Source of the DNA: an uncultured Dictyoglomota bacterium
Lineage (GTDB): Bacteria; Dictyoglomota; Dictyoglomia; Dictyoglomales; Dictyoglomaceae
Direction of reading: 5' to 3'
NCBI GenBank assembly: GCA_964654465.1
Contig: CAZZIO010000040.1
Location: 32,001-96,000, forward strand
Length of the DNA: 64,000 nucleotides
Below are positions 7,084 to 17,229 of this stretch, one piece after another. The notes below the pieces were generated by a model that saw only the letters and a program-made list of their open reading frames with translations, had not been told where the DNA came from and searched no databases. Every line of letters starts with the position of its first letter. Positions within the stretch are counted from its first letter, which is position 1. Made by a program: the position numbers and the translations under genes.

Positions 7084-8337
7084 TCACATATCTTCTACTT
7101 CTAAGGCAATATCTTTCCTATAATACATATTCTCAAAAAAGATATTTTGGATATTTTTATAAACCTTCTCCCTCGCCTCCTTAAAGGATTTACCTAAACC
7201 TACCACATTTAATACTCTTCCACCAGAAGTAACCAATTTACCATTCCTAAAGGAAGTTCCTGCATGAAAAATTATTGTCTCTTTTGTCTCCTTTACACTA
7301 ATTTCTTTACCGACTTCATACCTTTCTGGATATCCTTTAGATGCAAGTACAACACATACAGCTTTTTTTTCGGAATATTCATACTCATTATATGTTTTGA
7401 TATTTTTACCATCTTTAAGATCCAATAAAGAAAAACCAATAATAGGAAGAATAACTTGAGCCTCTGGGTCTCCAAGTCTAACATTAAATTCTAAAACATA
7501 TGGTTCGTTATTAACCAAAATCAATCCTCCATAAAGAAAACCCTCATATTTTAAATTATTCTTTTCAAGTTCAGATAATAATGGCTTAAATATCAATTTT
7601 AAAGATTTCTCTATTAAACTACTATCAATCCATGGTACAGGAGCAAAAGAGCCCATACCTCCAGTATTAGGACCAGTGTTTCCTTCTCCCACTCTTTTAT
7701 AGTCTTGAGCTGGTGGAAGTACATAGATTTCCCCGTCTTTAATAGCTACAATGAGAGAAAATTCTTTACCTTCAAGGAATTTTTCAATCACTACTCTCCT
7801 TCCAGCTTCTCCTAAAATACCTTCCTTTAATAACTTACCCAAGACTTCTACAGCCTCATTTTGAGAGTTAACAATAAAAACACCTTTACCAGCAGCCAAA
7901 CCATCAGCCTTAATTACTAAAGGATAATGCTCCTTTTCCACGAAACTTTTAGCAGATTCAAAATCATCAAATATCTTAAAATCTGCAGTAGGTATTTTTG
8001 CTTTCTCCATAATTTTCTTAGCAAAAGCCTTGCTTGCCTCTAGCATTGCTAGATTTTTAATTGGTCCCCATATACTTAAACCCTCCTCTAAAAATCTATC
8101 TACAATACCCATAGAAAGAGGCATTTCAGGTCCTACAATAGTCCAATCAATTCTATTTTCTTTAGCAAAACTTACAATTTCATTTATATTTTCAGATTTT
8201 ATAGGTACGCATTCCGCAAAACTACTGATACCAGCATTCCCAGGAAGAGCATAAATTTTTTCAACCCTTTTATCTTGGGATAATTTCCAACATATAGCAT
8301 GCTCTCTCCCACCACTTCCAATAACCATCACTTTCAT
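7084..8337 (-). CDS. purD: Phosphoribosylamine--glycine ligase
   Basis: GSGGREHA, KADGLAAGKGV, GPNTGGMG, EFNVRLGDPE. Confidence 0.98.
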   Translation of the reverse strand: MKVMVIGSGGREHAICWKLSQDKRVEKIYALPGNAGISSFAECVPIKSENINEIVSFAKENRIDWTIVGPEMPLSMGIVDRFLEEGLSIWGPIKNLAMLEASKAFAKKIMEKAKIPTADFKIFDDFESAKSFVEKEHYPLVIKADGLAAGKGVFIVNSQNEAVEVLGKLLKEGILGEAGRRVVIEKFLEGKEFSLIVAIKDGEIYVLPPAQDYKRVGEGNTGPNTGGMGSFAPVPWIDSSLIEKSLKLIFKPLLSELEKNNLKYEGFLYGGLILVNNEPYVLEFNVRLGDPEAQVILPIIGFSLLDLKDGKNIKTYNEYEYSEKKAVCVVLASKGYPERYEVGKEISVKETKETIIFHAGTSFRNGKLVTSGGRVLNVVGLGKSFKEAREKVYKNIQNIFFENMYYRKDIALEVEDM

Positions 8338-8963
8338 ATATTCTCAGCCCCCTTCTTCTTAAATACTACTCTTCTTCCTATTATCTTGTATTCTTCGGTT
8401 AGAATTTTTTTGACAGATTCTACTATTAACTTATGTTCTTCCTGCAATATTCTTTCAGCCAAAGTCTCTGGAGTATCATCATCATAGACAGGTACTGCTC
8501 TCTGACCTATTATTGGACCTGAATCTATACCCTCATCCACAAAATGAACAGTACATCCGCTTATTTTCACTCCATATTCCAATGCCTTTTTTTGAGCTTC
8601 CAATCCTGGAAAGGAGGGAAGAAGAGATGGATGGATATTAATAATTTTCCATGGAAAAGCATCAAGAAGGGTTTTACCTATAATCTTCATATATCCCGCC
8701 AATACTACTAAATCTACTTTATATTCAAGAAGAATTTCTCTTATTTTTTCCTCATATTCCCTTTTGGATCTGTAATCTTCTCTTTTTACAACATAAACGG
8801 GAATATTCTCCTTTTTTGCCCTCTCAATAGCATAAGCTTCTCTTTTATTACTAATAACAACTACTACCTTCGCTGGATAATCATCTTTTTTTGAAGCATC
8901 AATAAGAGCTTGTAAGTTTGAACCCCTACCTGAGACTAGAACTCCAAGTCTTTTCTTTTCCAT
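8334..8963 (-). CDS. purN: Phosphoribosylglycinamide formyltransferase
   Basis: SGRGSNLQA, LAGYM, NIHPSLLP, GCTVHFVDEGIDSGPII. Confidence 0.98.
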   Translation of the reverse strand: MEKKRLGVLVSGRGSNLQALIDASKKDDYPAKVVVVISNKREAYAIERAKKENIPVYVVKREDYRSKREYEEKIREILLEYKVDLVVLAGYMKIIGKTLLDAFPWKIINIHPSLLPSFPGLEAQKKALEYGVKISGCTVHFVDEGIDSGPIIGQRAVPVYDDDTPETLAERILQEEHKLIVESVKKILTEEYKIIGRRVVFKKKGAENI

Positions 8964-10012
8964 TCAATTTTTACGCCACCTTTCCCAGATTTTAATGATC
9001 CTATAATATAGCTCTTTTCTCCCATAGAATCTAAATCTTCCAATATCTTTTCTTCATTATCAGAAACCACAAGAATTAAGCCAATCCCCATATTGAAAAC
9101 TCTAAAAGCCTCCTTTATACTTATATTCCCTTTCTTTATAAAAAATTTAAATATCCATGGAATTTCCCAAGAAGATTCAACAATAGCGGTTAAATTATCT
9201 GGAATAATTCTTGGTAGATTACCCACAATTCCCCCACCCGTTATATGAGCAATGCCAAGAATATTTTCTCGATATCTCTCTAAGAGAGGCAAAATTTTAG
9301 GGGAATATATTTTCGTCGGTCTTAATAACTCCTCTAACAGATTATGTCCGTCTATATCTTTCTTCAAAGATATTTTCTTCTTTCTCAAAATATACCTTAT
9401 TAAAGAATAACCATTACTATGAAATCCGGAAGATGTGACCCCAATTAAAATATTACCATCCTTCATTTTATCTTTTTTAGGAAGCAAATTATCTTTTTCT
9501 ACAATTCCAAGTACAAAACCTACCAAATCAATCTCCTTACCCCTATATATACCCGGCATTTCAGCAGTTTCTCCACCAACCAAACTACAATTTGCTTCCT
9601 TGCAAGCTAAAGAAATACTCTTCAAAATTTCTTTATAGACATCTGGATCAATTTTTGATCCACCAAAATAATCTAAAAAGGCTAAAGGCTTACCGCCAGA
9701 GGTTAGAATATCATTAACATTCATAGCTACTAAATCAAAACCTATACCTGAAAACTTACGATATTTAACTGCAAGACTCAACTTAGTTCCCACTCCGTCA
9801 GTACTAAGTAAGAATAAAGGATTCTTAAATAGCTTAAAATCCAATTCTAAAATACTGGAAAAACCGTTCCAATAAGGTAATACATATGCCTGATGGGTAG
9901 ATTCAATATCCTTTCTAACCTCTTGTAATGCTCTTTCTACCTTAGAAATATTAACACCACTTAGACTATAAGTAATTTTTTTTCTTTTTTTACTATTTTT
10001 CTTCCAAAACAT
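8936..10012 (-). CDS. purM: Phosphoribosylformylglycinamidine cyclo-ligase (AIR synthetase)
   Basis: STDGVGTK, DLVAMNVND, GGETAEMPG, GFHSNGYS, HITGGG, FNMGIG. Start uncertain (ATG 10012 or TTG 10021); overlaps the purF end. Confidence 0.96.
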   Translation of the reverse strand: MFWKKNSKKRKKITYSLSGVNISKVERALQEVRKDIESTHQAYVLPYWNGFSSILELDFKLFKNPLFLLSTDGVGTKLSLAVKYRKFSGIGFDLVAMNVNDILTSGGKPLAFLDYFGGSKIDPDVYKEILKSISLACKEANCSLVGGETAEMPGIYRGKEIDLVGFVLGIVEKDNLLPKKDKMKDGNILIGVTSSGFHSNGYSLIRYILRKKKISLKKDIDGHNLLEELLRPTKIYSPKILPLLERYRENILGIAHITGGGIVGNLPRIIPDNLTAIVESSWEIPWIFKFFIKKGNISIKEAFRVFNMGIGLILVVSDNEEKILEDLDSMGEKSYIIGSLKSGKGGVKIEWKRKDLEF

Positions 10013-11352
10013 TCTCCACAATAACCCCTTTCTGGAAGTATACTAACTAAACCCTCCATACTTAAAAAAGCAACAGAATCAAAACCTAAAAGTCTGGCAA
10101 TCTCCTCAGGAGAGTAATGATAACTTATTAATTCTTTTGTATTAGGTATATCTACTCCATAATGGCAAGGAGAAATAAGGGGAGGTGAAGAAAGTCTAAG
10201 GTGTACTTCTTTAGCACCTTCTTCCCTAAATTTCTCAGCAAGGATTTTGGCAGTAGTACCTCTCACCAAAGAATCATCTACCAATACTATTTTTTTTCCT
10301 TTAATTAAATCGCTAACAAATAAAAATTTCATTCTTACTGACAATTCTCTTTCCTTTTGCCTTGGCTGTATAAATGTTCTGCCTACATAATGACTTCTCA
10401 TGAGAAGCATCTGTAGAGGTATACCTGACTCCTCACTATACCCAATAGCAGCAGGAATACCTGAATCAGGAACAGGAACAACCCAATCTGCAGATACAGG
10501 AACTTCTTTTGCTAATATTCTTCCCATTTGTTTTCTATAATAATAAACCGTCCTATCATCATAAAGACTATCTGGCCTCGAAAAATATATAAATTCAAAC
10601 AAGCAAAATCTGGAGGGTCTATCTTGAAATGATCTATAATTAAAAACATTTCCATCTTTACTGAAAAAAACCCATTCACCAGGATTCAATTCTTTAATTT
10701 CTATTATAGGTAAATCTTTTAAAGCTGATGTCTCAGATGCAAAAATAACTCCTCCATCTTGGAGCCTTCCCATAAAAAGTGGTCTAAATCCTGATGGATC
10801 TCTGATTGCATAAACACCTTCGTAGGTTCCAACTATTAGAGAGTAACTTCCTTCAACTTGATTAAGAGCCTCTTCAAGCCTTTCTTGTAAACTTTGCTTT
10901 TTTGATTTAGCTGTTAAATGTAATATAACTTCAGTATCTGAATCACTTTGAAATATTATCCCTTCTTTTTCCAAGTTTCTTCTTAAAGAATTAGCATTAG
11001 ATATATGACCATTATGGGCAAGAGCCATATAACCATACCTAGGAAGATTCACTACAAAGGGCTGAATACTTTGAGGTGATTTCTTACCAGAAGTAGAATA
11101 TCTAACATGTCCAACAGCAATTTTTCCCTTTAAGTTTTTAAGAGATAATTCATCAAAAACTTGAGAAACAAGACCAAAATTCTTATGAACATGATATCCT
11201 TCACTGGAAAAAGTTACAATTCCCGCGCTTTCTTGGCCTCTATGTTGTAATTTTAACAATCCTCTATAAGCCAAAAAACTTGCATATCTTTCACTAAAAA
11301 CTATAACTCCTATAACCCCACATTCTTCTTTTAAGGTCATTTGACCTTTCAC
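9961..11352 (-). CDS. purF: Amidophosphoribosyltransferase
   Basis: Propeptide then EECGV, LQHRGQESAG, GHVRYST, VDDSLVRGTT; Fe-S cysteines (CLFE, PCHYG, CGEC) as in the Bacillus-type enzyme. Confidence 0.98.
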   Translation of the reverse strand: MKGQMTLKEECGVIGVIVFSERYASFLAYRGLLKLQHRGQESAGIVTFSSEGYHVHKNFGLVSQVFDELSLKNLKGKIAVGHVRYSTSGKKSPQSIQPFVVNLPRYGYMALAHNGHISNANSLRRNLEKEGIIFQSDSDTEVILHLTAKSKKQSLQERLEEALNQVEGSYSLIVGTYEGVYAIRDPSGFRPLFMGRLQDGGVIFASETSALKDLPIIEIKELNPGEWVFFSKDGNVFNYRSFQDRPSRFCLFEFIYFSRPDSLYDDRTVYYYRKQMGRILAKEVPVSADWVVPVPDSGIPAAIGYSEESGIPLQMLLMRSHYVGRTFIQPRQKERELSVRMKFLFVSDLIKGKKIVLVDDSLVRGTTAKILAEKFREEGAKEVHLRLSSPPLISPCHYGVDIPNTKELISYHYSPEEIARLLGFDSVAFLSMEGLVSILPERGYCGECFGRKIVKKEKKLLIV

Positions 11353-11358
11353 CTTCTT

Positions 11359-13479
11359 TCAGAAAAGGGTCTTTATGTCTAATTCAAGAAAAGGTCTAAC
11401 TATAAATTTATCTGGAATTACTTTACCTATTTTTTGTACATTTAAGTTATATTTCTCTGCATATTTTAAAAACATAGTTTCTTTTTCTCTTGATACCTCC
11501 GCAATTAAAATAGAACCTTCACCAAAAAGCATTTCAGCTTTATCTTCTCTTGGGAGATTTACATACAATCCTTTATTTCCCCATATCGATAGTTCTAACA
11601 AAGAAGCCAACATTCCCCCCTCACTTACATCATGTAAAGAAAGAATAATTTTTTCCAACCTTATTTCCTCTAAAAAATATTTTAATTTTCTATCCCAAAT
11701 TAAATCTACATATGGGGGCTCACCTTCTATAACCCCATAAAGATCTTTCATAAATCTTGATCCATCTAAAGTTAATCTTGAAAAATCACCTATCACATAT
11801 ATAGGATTTTCATATTCTTTTAATCCCGGTGTTATTAAATATGAAAGATCCTCAATAATTCCAACCATACCAATAATAGGAGTAGGGAAAATTTTGTTAT
11901 CACCTTGACCATTATAAAAACTAACATTTCCACTTACTATAGGTATTTCCAATATTCTTGATGCCAAATTAATACCCTTTACTACTTCTTTAAATTGATA
12001 GAAAACATCCGGTTCATCGGGATCCCCAAAATTCAATCCATCAGTTATAGCTAATGGTTTGCCACCAACACAAAGAATGTTTCTACAGGCCTCTGCTACA
12101 GCATACATAGCCCCTTGTTTAGGATTCAAATAACAATATCTACCATTCCCATCTGTAACAATAGCAATACCCTTATTTGTATTTTTAATTCTCAAAACAG
12201 CAGCATCACCAAATCCAGGTGGTAAAACTGTATTTGTTTGCACGGAATAATCATACTGGGTATAGATTTTTTCCTTAGTTTTTATATCTTGAATTAAAAT
12301 CTCTATATATTTTTCCACATCTTCATTGGTGACTGTTACTACGTTTTCTTTCCTTTCCTTCTTGGGCCCCATTGATGGTGGATCAAATATAAGAGAACCA
12401 TCCACTAAAAGCTCAGTAGGTAGATCAACAACCTTTACTCCATTAAAATAAGCTATAAATCTTTCTTCTTTAATTACCTCTCCTATAACTTCTGCTTCAA
12501 GATCCCATTTTTTAAACACTTCAATAATATCCTTTACTTTATCTGGTCTAACTACAAAAAGCATTCTCTCTTGAGATTCCGATAACAATATTTCTTCTGG
12601 TGTCATATTTTCCTCTCTTTGAGGAACTTTATCAAGATAAACTTTTACTCCACTTCTTCCTCTACGTGCAGACTCTGATAAGGCACTCACAAGACCTGCA
12701 GCACCTAAATCTTGAATACCTATAACACCATCCTTAGCTGCAGCCTCTAAAGTTGCCTCAATAAGAAGCTTACCCAAGAAGGGATCCCCTACTTGAACTG
12801 ATGGTTTCTTTTTGTGAGTTTCATCATCAAGCTTCTCTGAAGCAAAACTTGCTCCTTGAAGACCATCCCTACCCGTTCTTGCGCCAACAAGTACTAGAAG
12901 ATTACCTTCACCTTCAGCTTTTCCTCGATAAGATTTTTGATTTGGAGATAATAATCCTAAACACATAACATTTACTAAGGGATTTGATGAATAACATTCA
13001 TCAAATACTATCTCTCCTCCCACAACAGGTACTCCAATACAATTACCATAAAAACTTATACCACTTACTACTCCCTCAAAAAGATACTTATTTTTTGGTT
13101 TATCAATTGAACCAAATCTTAATGAATCAAGTAGAGCAATAGGCCTTGCTCCAAGAGCCAATATATCCCTTACAATTCCTCCAACTCCTGTAGCAGCTCC
13201 TTGAAATGGTTCAACTGCTGAAGGATGATTATGGCTTTCTATCTTGAACACTATTTTATATCCATCTCCTAGATCTACAATTCCTGCATTCTCGCCTGGA
13301 CCTTGTTCTACCCACTCTGCTTTTGAATAAAAATCCTTTAGATATTTCCTTGAGTGTTTATAACTACAATGTTCAGACCATATTACAGATATAACAGACC
13401 ATTCTATATCATTTGGCTCTCTACCAAGCAATTCTCTTGCATGTTTTATTTCTTCTTCCTTAAGCCCAAAAATTCCCAT
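11359..13479 (-). CDS. purL: FGAM synthase subunit PurL (small form)
   Basis: WSEHCSYK, KIESHNHPSAVEPFQGAATGVGG, QDLGAAG, SESQERM, SGNVSFYN. Confidence 0.98.
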   Translation of the reverse strand: MGIFGLKEEEIKHARELLGREPNDIEWSVISVIWSEHCSYKHSRKYLKDFYSKAEWVEQGPGENAGIVDLGDGYKIVFKIESHNHPSAVEPFQGAATGVGGIVRDILALGARPIALLDSLRFGSIDKPKNKYLFEGVVSGISFYGNCIGVPVVGGEIVFDECYSSNPLVNVMCLGLLSPNQKSYRGKAEGEGNLLVLVGARTGRDGLQGASFASEKLDDETHKKKPSVQVGDPFLGKLLIEATLEAAAKDGVIGIQDLGAAGLVSALSESARRGRSGVKVYLDKVPQREENMTPEEILLSESQERMLFVVRPDKVKDIIEVFKKWDLEAEVIGEVIKEERFIAYFNGVKVVDLPTELLVDGSLIFDPPSMGPKKERKENVVTVTNEDVEKYIEILIQDIKTKEKIYTQYDYSVQTNTVLPPGFGDAAVLRIKNTNKGIAIVTDGNGRYCYLNPKQGAMYAVAEACRNILCVGGKPLAITDGLNFGDPDEPDVFYQFKEVVKGINLASRILEIPIVSGNVSFYNGQGDNKIFPTPIIGMVGIIEDLSYLITPGLKEYENPIYVIGDFSRLTLDGSRFMKDLYGVIEGEPPYVDLIWDRKLKYFLEEIRLEKIILSLHDVSEGGMLASLLELSIWGNKGLYVNLPREDKAEMLFGEGSILIAEVSREKETMFLKYAEKYNLNVQKIGKVIPDKFIVRPFLELDIKTLF

Positions 13480-13491
13480 GATTACACCCCT

Positions 13492-14145
13492 TTATTTTAG
13501 AAATGATAAGAACAGATTAATCCCATCAGAGCTTCCCAAAATATCTTCTACTGCTCTTTCAGGATGAGGCATCATACCCATTACATTACCCTTTTTATTA
13601 ATAATTCCAGCAATATTATCAATTGAACCATTTGGATTTTCATATTCATATTTAAGTACTATTTGATTGTTCTCCTTCAGATCTTCTAATCCCTTTTCTG
13701 ATATATAATATCTACCTTCTTTATGGGCTATAGGTATCTTAATAACCTGATTAACTAAATACCTATTCAAGAAGATATTTTGATTATTCAATACTCTTAT
13801 AAAAACAGGTTTACATATAAAAGTATTGGTAACATTTGGTAACATAGCTCCAGGTAAAAGACCTGCCTCTAAAAGTATCTGGAACCCATTACATATACCT
13901 AGCACATATCCACCTTTATTTGCAAAATCTATTACCTCATTCATGATAGGAGAAAATCTTGCAATAGAACCAGCTCTCAAATAGTCTCCATAAGAAAATC
14001 CTCCAGGGAGTATTACCATATCCACCTCTTGAAGATCATGATCTTTGTGCCAGAGAAAAACTGGGTCATGTCCTGTAATCTTTAAAGCATAAAAGGTATC
14101 CATATCACAATTTGTGCCTGGAAATACCACTACTCCTACCCTCAT
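13492..14145 (-). CDS. purQ: FGAM synthase glutaminase subunit
   Basis: [32 protein letters not shown]. Confidence 0.98.
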
Positions 14146-14396
14146 TCTCTTTCCACCCTTATTGAAAAATCTTCTGTAACTGGATTAACAAGTACAATTT
14201 CACTCATTTTTCTAACTTTTTCCATCACTTCCTCTTCAGAATTCCCCATCAGTTTAATTTTAAGGACCTTTCCAACCCTCACATCTTTTACTTCTTCAAA
14301 GTCTAAGGAATGAAGAGCATTTCTAATAGTTTTACCTTGAGGATCAAAGATCCCCTCTTTTAAAAAGATCTCTAATATCACTGTCCATTCTTTCAC
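14142..14396 (-). CDS. purS: FGAM synthase subunit PurS
   Basis: DPQGKTI...VRVGK...LVNPVTE; 84 aa, immediately before purQ. Confidence 0.95.
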
Positions 14397-15700
14397 TTTA
14401 ATTCCTCCTTAACTCCAGATCTCTGAAATATAAAATCTATATTTTTAAGGAATACTTGCGGAGAAAAACAACTTTCTATCTCTTCCTTAGAAAGTTTTTC
14501 TGTAACTCTCTTATCTTCTAAAACTACCTCTAAAAAATCTCTTTTTTCATTGATAGCCTTAAATGCATCCTCTTGAATCCATGAATAAGCAATATCCCTT
14601 AAAACCCCTTTTTGGGTAAGAGCTAATAATAAGTTTTGAGAATAAAATATTCTATAATTAGTATTCATGTTCTCTAGAATATTCTCTTCATTAACTTTTA
14701 AATCTTTAACTATCTCATAAGTTAGATTAAGTATATAATCAGTGAGGGTAGTAGCATCTGGAAATATTACTCTTTCTACAGAAGAATGACTAATATCTCT
14801 CTCATGCCATAAAGGAATGTTTTCAAAAGCAGAATTCATATATGACCTTATTACTCTTGACAGTCCACAAATTCTTTCAGAAAGAATAGGATTTCTTTTA
14901 TGAGGCATAGCTGACGATCCCTTTTGCCTCTCCCTAAAAGGTTCTTCCAATTCTCCTACTTCCGTTCTTTGGAGATGTCTAATTTCAAGAGCAATTCGTT
15001 CACAAGACGAAGCTATCATTCCTAAAACATAAATTACTTCTGCATGTCTATCTCTTGGAATAATTTGTGTAGCAACTGGTTCAGGTTCTAATCCTAAAAT
15101 CTTACATGCCAATTCTTCTACTTCAGGTGACAAATGACTTAATGTACCAACAACACCTGAAAATTTTCCATATCTTATGTTTTCTCTTGCCTTTCTCAAC
15201 CTCTCTAAATTTCTTTTAAGTTCTGACCACCATCCCAAAAACTTAAAACCTAAGGTGATTGGTTCTGCATGCATTCCATGAGTTCTTCCCATCATAGGCA
15301 AATCTTTGTATTGAATTGCTTTTTTTGCTATTTCATCTAACAATTTTAAGAGATCTGATTCTATATAATTAAGAGCTTCTAAAATTTGTAAAGAAAAAGC
15401 AGTATCCATAACATCTGATGATGTAAGTCCTTGATGGATGTATTCAGATCCTTCTCCTACATATTGAGCCACATTAGTTAAAAATGCTATCATCTCATGA
15501 TTATTAATCTTTTCTATCTCCTTAATTTCTTCGACTTTAAATCTTGCTTTCTTTTTTATTTTTTCAAATGCTTCACTTGGGATCTCTCCTAATTTAGCTC
15601 TTGCTTCTAATACTGCCTCTTCTACCTTCCACCAAAGAGAATATCTTTTCTCATCAGACCAAACTTCTCTTAATTCCTTTCTACTATATCTTTCTAACAC
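14393..15700 (-). CDS. purB: Adenylosuccinate lyase
   Basis: GRTHGMHAEP, GSSAMPHKRNP, WHERDISHSSVER. Start moved to GTG 15700 (SD AAGGAGG) because the ORF-track ATG 15739 lies within the riboswitch terminator. Confidence 0.97.
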   Translation of the reverse strand: MLERYSRKELREVWSDEKRYSLWWKVEEAVLEARAKLGEIPSEAFEKIKKKARFKVEEIKEIEKINNHEMIAFLTNVAQYVGEGSEYIHQGLTSSDVMDTAFSLQILEALNYIESDLLKLLDEIAKKAIQYKDLPMMGRTHGMHAEPITLGFKFLGWWSELKRNLERLRKARENIRYGKFSGVVGTLSHLSPEVEELACKILGLEPEPVATQIIPRDRHAEVIYVLGMIASSCERIALEIRHLQRTEVGELEEPFRERQKGSSAMPHKRNPILSERICGLSRVIRSYMNSAFENIPLWHERDISHSSVERVIFPDATTLTDYILNLTYEIVKDLKVNEENILENMNTNYRIFYSQNLLLALTQKGVLRDIAYSWIQEDAFKAINEKRDFLEVVLEDKRVTEKLSKEEIESCFSPQVFLKNIDFIFQRSGVKEELK

Positions 15701-15716
15701 TTTTTTTACCTCCTTT

Positions 15717-15778
15717 AAAAGCAAAAAGCCCAAGCTCATAGGTTCTCCTTACGAGGGAACCTACCCGCCTGGGCTTTT
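15717..15778 (-). terminator. Riboswitch-controlled intrinsic terminator (expression platform)
   Basis: AAAAGCCCAGGC...TAGGTTC...GAACCTA...GCTTGGGCTTTTT, then GCTTTT. The 5' arm is the conserved 3' part of the ykkC aptamer. Confidence 0.85.
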
Positions 15779-15857
15779 ATCCCTTCGGTGTAGCAAGATC
15801 AACAATCTTGCCAGCTCCGCTTGGATCTTTAGACCCTAAGGAGCTCTTCCGCTCGTA
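15750..15857 (-). ncRNA. ykkC-family riboswitch aptamer, probable PRPP subtype (2b)
   Basis: TACGAGCGGAAGAGCTCCTTAGGGTC...CCAAGCGGAGCTGGCAAGATTGTTGATCTTGCTACACCGAAGGGATAAAAGCCCAGGCGGGTAGGTTCCCTCGTA. Carries ykkC hallmarks TAGGGT, CCRAGCG, ACACC, GGGATAAAAGCCC; precedes de novo purine genes. Confidence 0.85.
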
Positions 15858-15920
15858 GTCAGGCAATTTACGGTTGCCTGGTAGAAACTCCCGAGCCATA
15901 TTCTCGGGATTATACGAAGC
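15851..15920 (-). ncRNA. Purine (guanine-sensing) riboswitch aptamer
   Basis: TCGTATAATCCCGAGAATATGGCTCGGGAGTTTCTACCAGGCAACCGTAAATTGCCTGACTACGAG. P2 CCCGAG/CTCGGG, J2/3 AGTTTCTAC, P3 CAGGCAA/TTGCCTG with loop CCGTAAA; discriminator C (GAC-TACG) indicates guanine. Confidence 0.96.
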
Positions 15921-15928
15921 TTAAGTAG

Positions 15929-17229
<1,301 letters not shown>

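Follow-up and report, generated by a model that had tools for sequence, protein, structure and literature searches.

The leader of purB in the Dictyoglomaceae probably (we put the chance at about 0.83) carries a tandem guanine-PRPP riboswitch, made up of a guanine aptamer and a ykkC subtype 2b aptamer that share one intrinsic terminator and control transcription of the purBSQLFMND operon. Both elements have the sequence and secondary structure of their aptamer classes, they overlap each other and the terminator, and their conservation, covariation and gene context are seen in the leaders aligned here. The class, its tandem form, the common terminator and the competition between helix P0 and guanine P1 are already published; the host appears to be new for the tandem guanine-PRPP class. 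Apart from the tandem guanine-PRPP switch, no natural riboswitch is known to have two different aptamers that interact by way of a single expression platform.

The purB leader and its operon

The window, which is the whole stretch of 64,000 nucleotides that was analysed, comes from an uncultured bacterium of the Dictyoglomaceae. The leader of about 220 nt lies on its minus strand between eno (enolase, 15940-17226, TIGR01060) and purB. Its features are given below; alignments A1 and A2 and the covariance model R1 are described in the following section.

15929-15957, minus strand: promoter-like pair, -35 TTGAAC and -10 TATAAT separated by 17 nt, 10 of 12 matches
15852-15918, minus strand: guanine aptamer (Rfam RF00167), with P1 15918-13/15857-52, P2 15909-03/15895-89 and P3 15880-74/15866-60
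15852-15857, minus strand: common strand UACGAG, either the 3' side of guanine P1 or the 5' end of the extended P0 (sequence)
15750-15857, minus strand: PRPP-type (ykkC subtype 2b) aptamer (R1 over its full length; helices covary in A1 and A2)
15850-47/15759-56, minus strand: P0 of the PRPP-type aptamer, with its extension 15857-52/15755-50 and a bulge at 15851 (sequence)
15845-40/15818-13, minus strand: P1 of the PRPP-type aptamer, with the P1a/b hairpin 15836-32/15827-23 and P2 15812-05/15799-92
15788-86/15767-65, minus strand: CCG/CGG helix of the PRPP-type aptamer, with P3 15783-81/15773-71
15769, minus strand: discriminator G, equivalent of G96 of Thermoanaerobacter mathranii, with its partner C15790 (A1 and A2 alignments)
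15717-15778, minus strand: intrinsic terminator (folding), with lower stem 15778-67/15735-24, upper stem 15764-54/15749-38 and U tract 15727-15717
15698-15715, minus strand: Shine-Dalgarno AAGGAGG (15715-15709) and purB GTG start (15700-15698) (sequence)
7084-15700, minus strand: operon purB-purS-purQ-purL-purF-purM-purN-purD (NCBIfam equivalog models, all above their cut-offs)

The promoter-like pair ends 10 nt ahead of guanine P1. A promoter scan returned two sites against 1.0 expected in shuffles, the pair at 15957-15929 being non-significant alone. Three relatives of the same genus have a similar hexamer pair at the equivalent upstream position, as read from their sequences, and in the genus labelled g3 a TTGACA and a TATACT 17 nt apart stand immediately upstream of P1. 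The purB start at 15700 aligns with a GTG or ATG in all eight relatives, and the TIGR00928 match begins at residue 1. The longest purB ORF starts at an ATG at 15739, within the terminator stem, and encodes 448 aa; the GTG at 15700 (435 aa) agrees with the Shine-Dalgarno sequence, the family alignment and the purB model. Automatic gene calling by longest ORF would place the terminator inside the purB coding sequence.

The eight pur genes downstream, the ORFs of which adjoin or overlap one another, associate the leader with de novo purine synthesis, and their order follows that of the Bacillus-type pur operon. The genes purE, purK, purC and purH are absent from the operon and must be elsewhere in the genome, where there is no second copy of either aptamer to precede them. 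A SAM decarboxylase gene (TIGR03330, 6581-6982) lies on the same strand as purD and follows it after a gap of 100 nt.

The guanine aptamer was recognised by the Rfam Purine model (RF00167) between 15937 and 15836 with a score of 90.9 bits, the cut-off being 37 (whole-window E 2.4e-15; model positions 1-102), and folds as the purine three-way junction P1-P2-P3. The specificity position in J3/1 is C15858 (GACUA), invariant in 9/9 family rows, and a C at this place (GACUA, not GAUUA) marks a guanine-type purine aptamer. P2 covaries within the family (AU in four rows, GC in four). An Rfam Purine search of the genome gave no further Purine matches, and Guanidine-I and R1 searches of the genome gave no second copy of the PRPP-type aptamer. 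The two aptamers are adjacent, with 6 nt (15851-15846) between their P1 stems.

An earlier note on this DNA had placed a promoter, a guanine aptamer, a ykkC-type aptamer, a terminator and the purB Shine-Dalgarno sequence on the minus strand, and all are present where it put them. The guanine identity that it gave the first aptamer agrees with the Purine score and C15858, the pur context that it cited is confirmed by the NCBIfam assignments of purBSQLFMND, and the host, which it took to lie outside the Firmicutes, belongs to the Dictyoglomaceae.

Identity of the second aptamer

One genome per species of a named genome collection was scanned for the 3' half of a guanine aptamer followed by a ykkC core at 62-92 nt. 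The scan gave at least 119 stretches, among which 117 proved on reading to be tandem guanine-ykkC leaders; L067 and L093 were rejected as chance matches, a count about as expected by chance. Alignment A1 holds 110 distinct tandem leaders among the matches listed, mostly from Bacillota-labelled genomes, and is not an unbiased sample because the search pattern was taken from the window's own conserved motifs. It was made without the Dictyoglomaceae-type leaders L061, L080, L126 and L130, the chance matches L067 and L093, the leader L101 at a contig end, and duplicates. Covariance model R1 was built from A1 and thus holds no Dictyoglomaceae sequence; its E-values are rough. Alignment A2 holds nine family leaders, that of the window and eight others.

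R1 matched the window at 15860-15750 with 92.3 bits (E about 2e-24) over 122 of 122 positions, in keeping with the ykkC-type identity that the earlier note had assigned, and scored 87.4-93.9 bits on the eight other family leaders. RNAalifold, run on A1 with no structure supplied, returned P1, P1a, P2, P3 and a terminal helix between GAAA in the 5' tail and UUUC in the 3' tail, which gains three more pairs into the 3' strand of guanine P1. Compensatory changes are found in 16 of the 24 pairs of this fold, and 98.1% of cells are paired compared to 88.3% in shuffles, of which 0/500 reach any of five measures. The window has the same ykkC scaffold of P1, P1a/b, P2 and P3 with the conserved core, and its P0 tails pair GGAA (15850-47) with UUCC (15759-56). 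This differs from the commoner GAAA/UUUC by a compensatory change which is also seen in 12 of the 110 A1 rows; the P0 columns are paired in 109-110 of the 110, with GC-for-AU swaps in those 12. The CCG/CGG helix (15788-86/15767-65) covaries in A1 as well (GC in 90 rows, UA in 12). The 36-nt 3' half of the aptamer (15793-15758) is identical to the A1 consensus letter for letter. The short P1a/b arm was considered as a unique feature and rejected, being equally short in several A1 rows, e.g. L047, L078 and L112.

Guanidine-I (RF00442, ykkC subtype 1) is the sole Rfam family that matches the second element, and it does so over 107 of 107 model positions (15851-15764, E 1.4e-5) on a like scaffold of P1, P1a/b, P2 and P3 with a GGGAUAAAAGCCC core, the P1a/b arm having 6 nt here and 26 in the model. 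A guanidine-I riboswitch at this place nevertheless has a negligible likelihood in our view. The score of 38.8 bits lies below the curated cut-off of 63, and true guanidine-I aptamers from other genomes behave in the opposite way on the two models: L147 and L148 reach 84.2 and 80.0 bits on Guanidine-I and only 37.4 and 36.8 on R1, the reverse of the 38.8 and 92.3 bits of the window. The pocket bases differ too, the core of the window reading ACACCG...CCCAGGCGG and that of the true guanidine-I aptamers ACACGG...CCCGGGAG, and P0 tails, which guanidine-I aptamers lack, are present here. Guanidine-I aptamers stand before genes of guanidine detoxification, not purine synthesis, and the genes downstream here are purine genes.

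A reading of the second element as a sensor of ppGpp (subtype 2a) or of another nucleotide derivative (subtype 2c) has more to recommend it. Published descriptions find subtypes 2a and 2b strikingly similar (Sherlock et al. 2018, eLife 7:e33908; Knappenberger et al. 2018, eLife 7:e36381), the wild-type T. mathranii PRPP aptamer binds ppGpp weakly (Kd 91 uM; eLife 7:e36381), and the set scored by R1 held no subtype 2a or 2c sequences. It is still highly unlikely. In the crystal structure of the T. mathranii PRPP aptamer, G96 pairs with C75 and sets specificity for PRPP; the mutation G96A turns the aptamer to ppGpp, a switch of about 40,000-fold, and natural ppGpp aptamers are described as having A, C, U or no base at this position, and never G (Knappenberger et al. 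2018, eLife 7:e36381). The window has G15769 paired with C15790 at the same 21-nt spacing, and this pair is C-G in 110/110 A1 rows and invariant in 9/9 A2 rows; the earlier note had read the G before GCGG as favouring PRPP over ppGpp, and the published G96 rule bears this out. Next to the discriminating G, on its 5' side, the window has A where T. mathranii has G95, and the A1 rows have A, G or U. Subtype 2a lies upstream of branched-chain amino acid, glutamate synthase or natA genes, whereas the fusion to a guanine aptamer and the purine biosynthesis operon are traits of subtype 2b (eLife 7:e33908), and the exact agreement of 15793-15758 with the A1 consensus also argues against the ppGpp or subtype 2c reading.

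The PRPP-type assignment has a bearing on annotation. At curated thresholds Rfam reported nothing in the window besides Purine, and with permissive thresholds (451 nt) Guanidine-I was the sole other credible match, with no separate PRPP or ppGpp family. Rfam cut-offs thus see only the guanine half here, and purine regulation would be misread as a simple OFF switch. The warning that pipelines miss or mislabel the second aptamer was therefore apt, since it falls below the Rfam cut-off in the window and is labelled Guanidine-I in another tandem leader, L151 (125-318, genome G070). There the second aptamer scores 67.6 bits on Guanidine-I, above the cut-off, beside a Purine match of 73.9 bits, and annotation by cut-off would here give a PRPP-type aptamer the guanidine-I label.

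Terminator, competing helices and predicted gate logic

The terminator hairpin has a predicted energy of -39.9 kcal/mol (z -6.2), and 0/200 shuffles were as stable. Its 5' arm, AAAAGCCCAGGC (15778-15767), pairs with 15735-24, and UUUUUGCUUUU follows the hairpin. This arm takes in the final four bases of loop L3, P3's 3' strand, the discriminator G and the first part of the CGG strand, so 15778-15767 belongs both to the aptamer core and to the stem of the single common terminator, as the earlier note had pointed out. A simple terminator scan of the window found nothing at the leader because its loop limit was 8 nt. Folding and the scan gave no hairpin with a U tract between the two aptamers. 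In A2 the lower stem contains a compensatory change from G-C to A-U between genera (columns 160/207; GC in five rows, AU in four) which involves a base unpaired in the aptamer fold and so speaks for the terminator itself, and the upper stem varies among genera. In genus g3 the 3' strand of P0 falls within the terminator loop, yet it is invariant, a pattern that fits selection for P0.

The strand TACGAG (15857-15852) is complementary to CTCGTA (15755-15750), and GGAA (15850-15847) to TTCC (15759-15756). The extended P0 therefore makes 10 pairs with UUCCCUCGUA (15759-50), leaving C15851 bulged, and it excludes guanine P1 since 15857-52 is common to both helices. This competing fold is as the earlier note drew it; the idea itself is not new, being already in print for T. 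mathranii, where P0 forms from the 5' and 3' tails and, by prediction, cannot coexist with guanine P1 (Knappenberger et al. 2018, eLife 7:e36381). Nearest-neighbour duplex energies are -4.2 kcal/mol for guanine P1 against -11.5 for P0 with its extension at 37 C, and -1.5 against -5.4 at 70 C, while the 4-pair P0 core alone has -2.1 at 37 C and -0.6 at 70 C. Contiguous pairing of the tail with the guanine P1 strand covers three bases in 63 of the 110 A1 rows, four or more in 32 and all six in 7. In the family the overlap is six bases in 9/9 rows, which is the upper end of the known range.

Whole folds with the terminator have -90.7 kcal/mol against -74.5 with the PRPP aptamer at 37 C, and -35.2 against -23.9 at 70 C. 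The terminator fold is thus favoured by 16 kcal/mol at 37 C and 11 at 70 C in terms of secondary structure energy only, and read-through must therefore rest on the ligand, tertiary energy and kinetics. Parts of the window stretch were found in three metatranscriptome runs, as contigs of a relative about 93% identical. A contig of 1150 nt in run X1 spans eno, the leader and purB (15308-16458); these contigs carry no strand or ends, and the library may have contained DNA. Two contigs in run X2 break at 15751 and 15779, and being assembled contigs they do not resolve transcript ends or strand.

The nearest published counterpart is the Bacillus megaterium codA tandem (Sherlock et al. 2018, eLife 7:e33908), which likewise has a guanine aptamer directly upstream of a subtype 2b aptamer, one terminator overlapping the PRPP aptamer, and purine-related genes. 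P1 stems in published tandems are 5-7 nt apart, and 6 nt apart here. Compared by published description, the leader described here differs in its regulated genes (purB and the eight-gene pur operon), in its host (Dictyoglomaceae, not Firmicutes) and in that P0 overlaps the guanine P1 3' strand over its full six bases. The T. mathranii tandem is also that of a thermophile (eLife 7:e36381); the P1a/b arm here is short by comparison, a 5-pair hairpin. A singlet PRPP switch of Heliobacterium modesticaldum also has purB as its first regulated gene and uses P3 and the aptamer core as an antiterminator against an intrinsic terminator, but no guanine aptamer stands in front of it and it has a single input (eLife 7:e33908).

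By analogy with these systems, the first aptamer would bind guanine, and the second would bind PRPP and bring about read-through. During transcription the guanine aptamer (15918-15852) would fold first, the PRPP aptamer would be complete only once its last strand (15759-15750) emerged, and the terminator 3' arm (15749-15724) would emerge immediately after that strand; read-through would have to be settled within the short time before 15749-15724 was made. With PRPP bound, P0 and its extension, P3 and the C15790-G15769 pair would hold 15783-15750, so that the terminator 5' arm (15778-15767) and the upper stem would be occupied and RNA polymerase would read into purB. Because the extended P0 occupies the whole six-base 3' strand of guanine P1, PRPP would override guanine, and the operon would be on at any guanine level. 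With guanine bound and PRPP scarce, P1 would retain 15857-15852 and P0 would be down to four weak pairs; the PRPP aptamer would then be weakened, the terminator would form and the operon would be off.

The order of dominance in this scheme is the point on which the earlier note and the literature part. The note had guanine overriding PRPP, and the published direction is the reverse: in B. megaterium codA, PRPP overrides guanine, the switch is off only with guanine and without PRPP, and termination falls close to zero at high levels of both ligands (Sherlock et al. 2018, eLife 7:e33908). The IMPLY reading, PRPP over guanine, is repeated in a review (Sherlock 2022). The note's expectation that guanine would reverse read-through brought about by PRPP thus runs contrary to published behaviour. 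An IMPLY output with these ON and OFF senses may be expected here from the B. megaterium data, and the greater stability of P0 with its extension compared to guanine P1 fits override by PRPP. The state without either ligand is uncertain, being on in the published truth table and largely off by the calculated energies.

A gate built from the same two aptamers with guanine dominant (NOT-guanine AND PRPP) has some arguments of its own. The guanine aptamer is made first, and its P1 is complete about 100 nt before the P0 3' strand exists, so guanine could lock 15857-15852 beforehand and gain a kinetic advantage. In the family, guanine P1 covers six of the 10 P0 pairs, compared to three in 63 of the 110 A1 examples, and the P0 core without its extension is the weak 4-pair helix given above. 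The logic of such tandems may also depend on relative helix stabilities (Knappenberger et al. 2018, eLife 7:e36381). However, the extended P0 duplex outdoes guanine P1 at both temperatures, termination is near zero in B. megaterium with both ligands high (eLife 7:e33908), and the review repeats the IMPLY reading (Sherlock 2022). We regard the reversed logic as decidedly unlikely, and it is the head start of about 100 nt that earns it this much weight.

Distribution and origin in the Dictyoglomaceae

The source genome has 1.9 Mb in 72 contigs, and its family contains 10 other species genomes in three genera; the genomes compared beyond the family are related to it at the domain level only. A DNA search together with R1 found the switch in eight of the 10 other family genomes, and one Dictyoglomaceae leader (L061) is 99% identical to that of the window over 171 columns. 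In one of the remaining two (G004, 72% complete) the leader is not assembled because purB is cut by a contig end. In the other (G006, 99% complete) neither a guanine nor a PRPP aptamer was found ahead of an intact purB (71% identity), where there is an AT-rich spacer of about 170 nt (L133, 2794-2960). This appears to be a real absence through loss within genus g3, in which four other species carry the switch. Among 90 genomes of other families, three had PRPP-type matches (69.9-84.2 bits on R1) and one had only a guanidine-I cross-match.

In the published survey every one of the 257 PRPP aptamers is from Firmicutes (Sherlock et al. 2018, eLife 7:e33908), and the review counts 192 tandems (Sherlock 2022). 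The text of the review contains no word beginning 'Dictyoglom', and the supplementary alignments of 2018 and 2022 may list such sequences. By title and abstract, the papers found on Dictyoglomus, Dictyoglomi or Dictyoglomota and riboswitches do not deal with purine or PRPP switches. Conservation in three genera of a different phylum, which is small and thermophilic, widens the range of the known class and leaves knowledge of its mechanism unchanged. The compact, heat-adapted sequences, with their short P1a/b arm and long P0, may suit structural or kinetic work on aptamer competition.

Among the 117 tandem leaders listed, 65 are followed by one of the eight pur genes within 2.5 kb. Three come from genomes titled Dictyoglomaceae, one titled 'uncultured bacterium' falls in the same clade, two have odd titles, and the rest have Bacillota-type names. 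PurB downstream of other tandem switches is about 48% identical to window PurB over the full length, and this identity does not point to recent co-transfer. In a quick maximum-likelihood tree of 118 leaders (made without L067 and L093, which are chance matches, L126, which has an N gap, and three rows with less than 75 nt of upstream flank), the eight Dictyoglomaceae-type rows form one clade with an SH-aLRT of 100 on a long branch of 0.78. Support for the sister of this clade is only 8, so that the family may have the switch by descent or by old transfer.

It is conceivable, though we hold it doubtful, that the composite gate has long been present and evolving separately in the Dictyoglomaceae, and is not a recent loan from Bacillota. 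On that view, the complete overlap of P0 and guanine P1 (10 pairs, six P1 bases) would be an adaptation to growth at about 70 C or above which makes the two aptamers strictly exclusive and possibly shifts the truth table from IMPLY. The family would then provide a first natural variant of the sole interactive two-aptamer logic gate on record, from a second phylum.

Some records in these searches were misleading. L082 and L110, the two oddly titled entries, are typical tandem leaders in bins titled Mycobacterium leprae and Chitinophagales, and their titles probably reflect mis-binning or mislabelling and not a wider host range. A 'triple' arrangement suggested by two DNA matches in G005 was rejected as an assembly artefact, an N gap with the same sequence repeated on both sides. 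In that genome (L007, 1401-1500), and also in L126, a run of 100 N inside the guanine aptamer mimics two aptamers.
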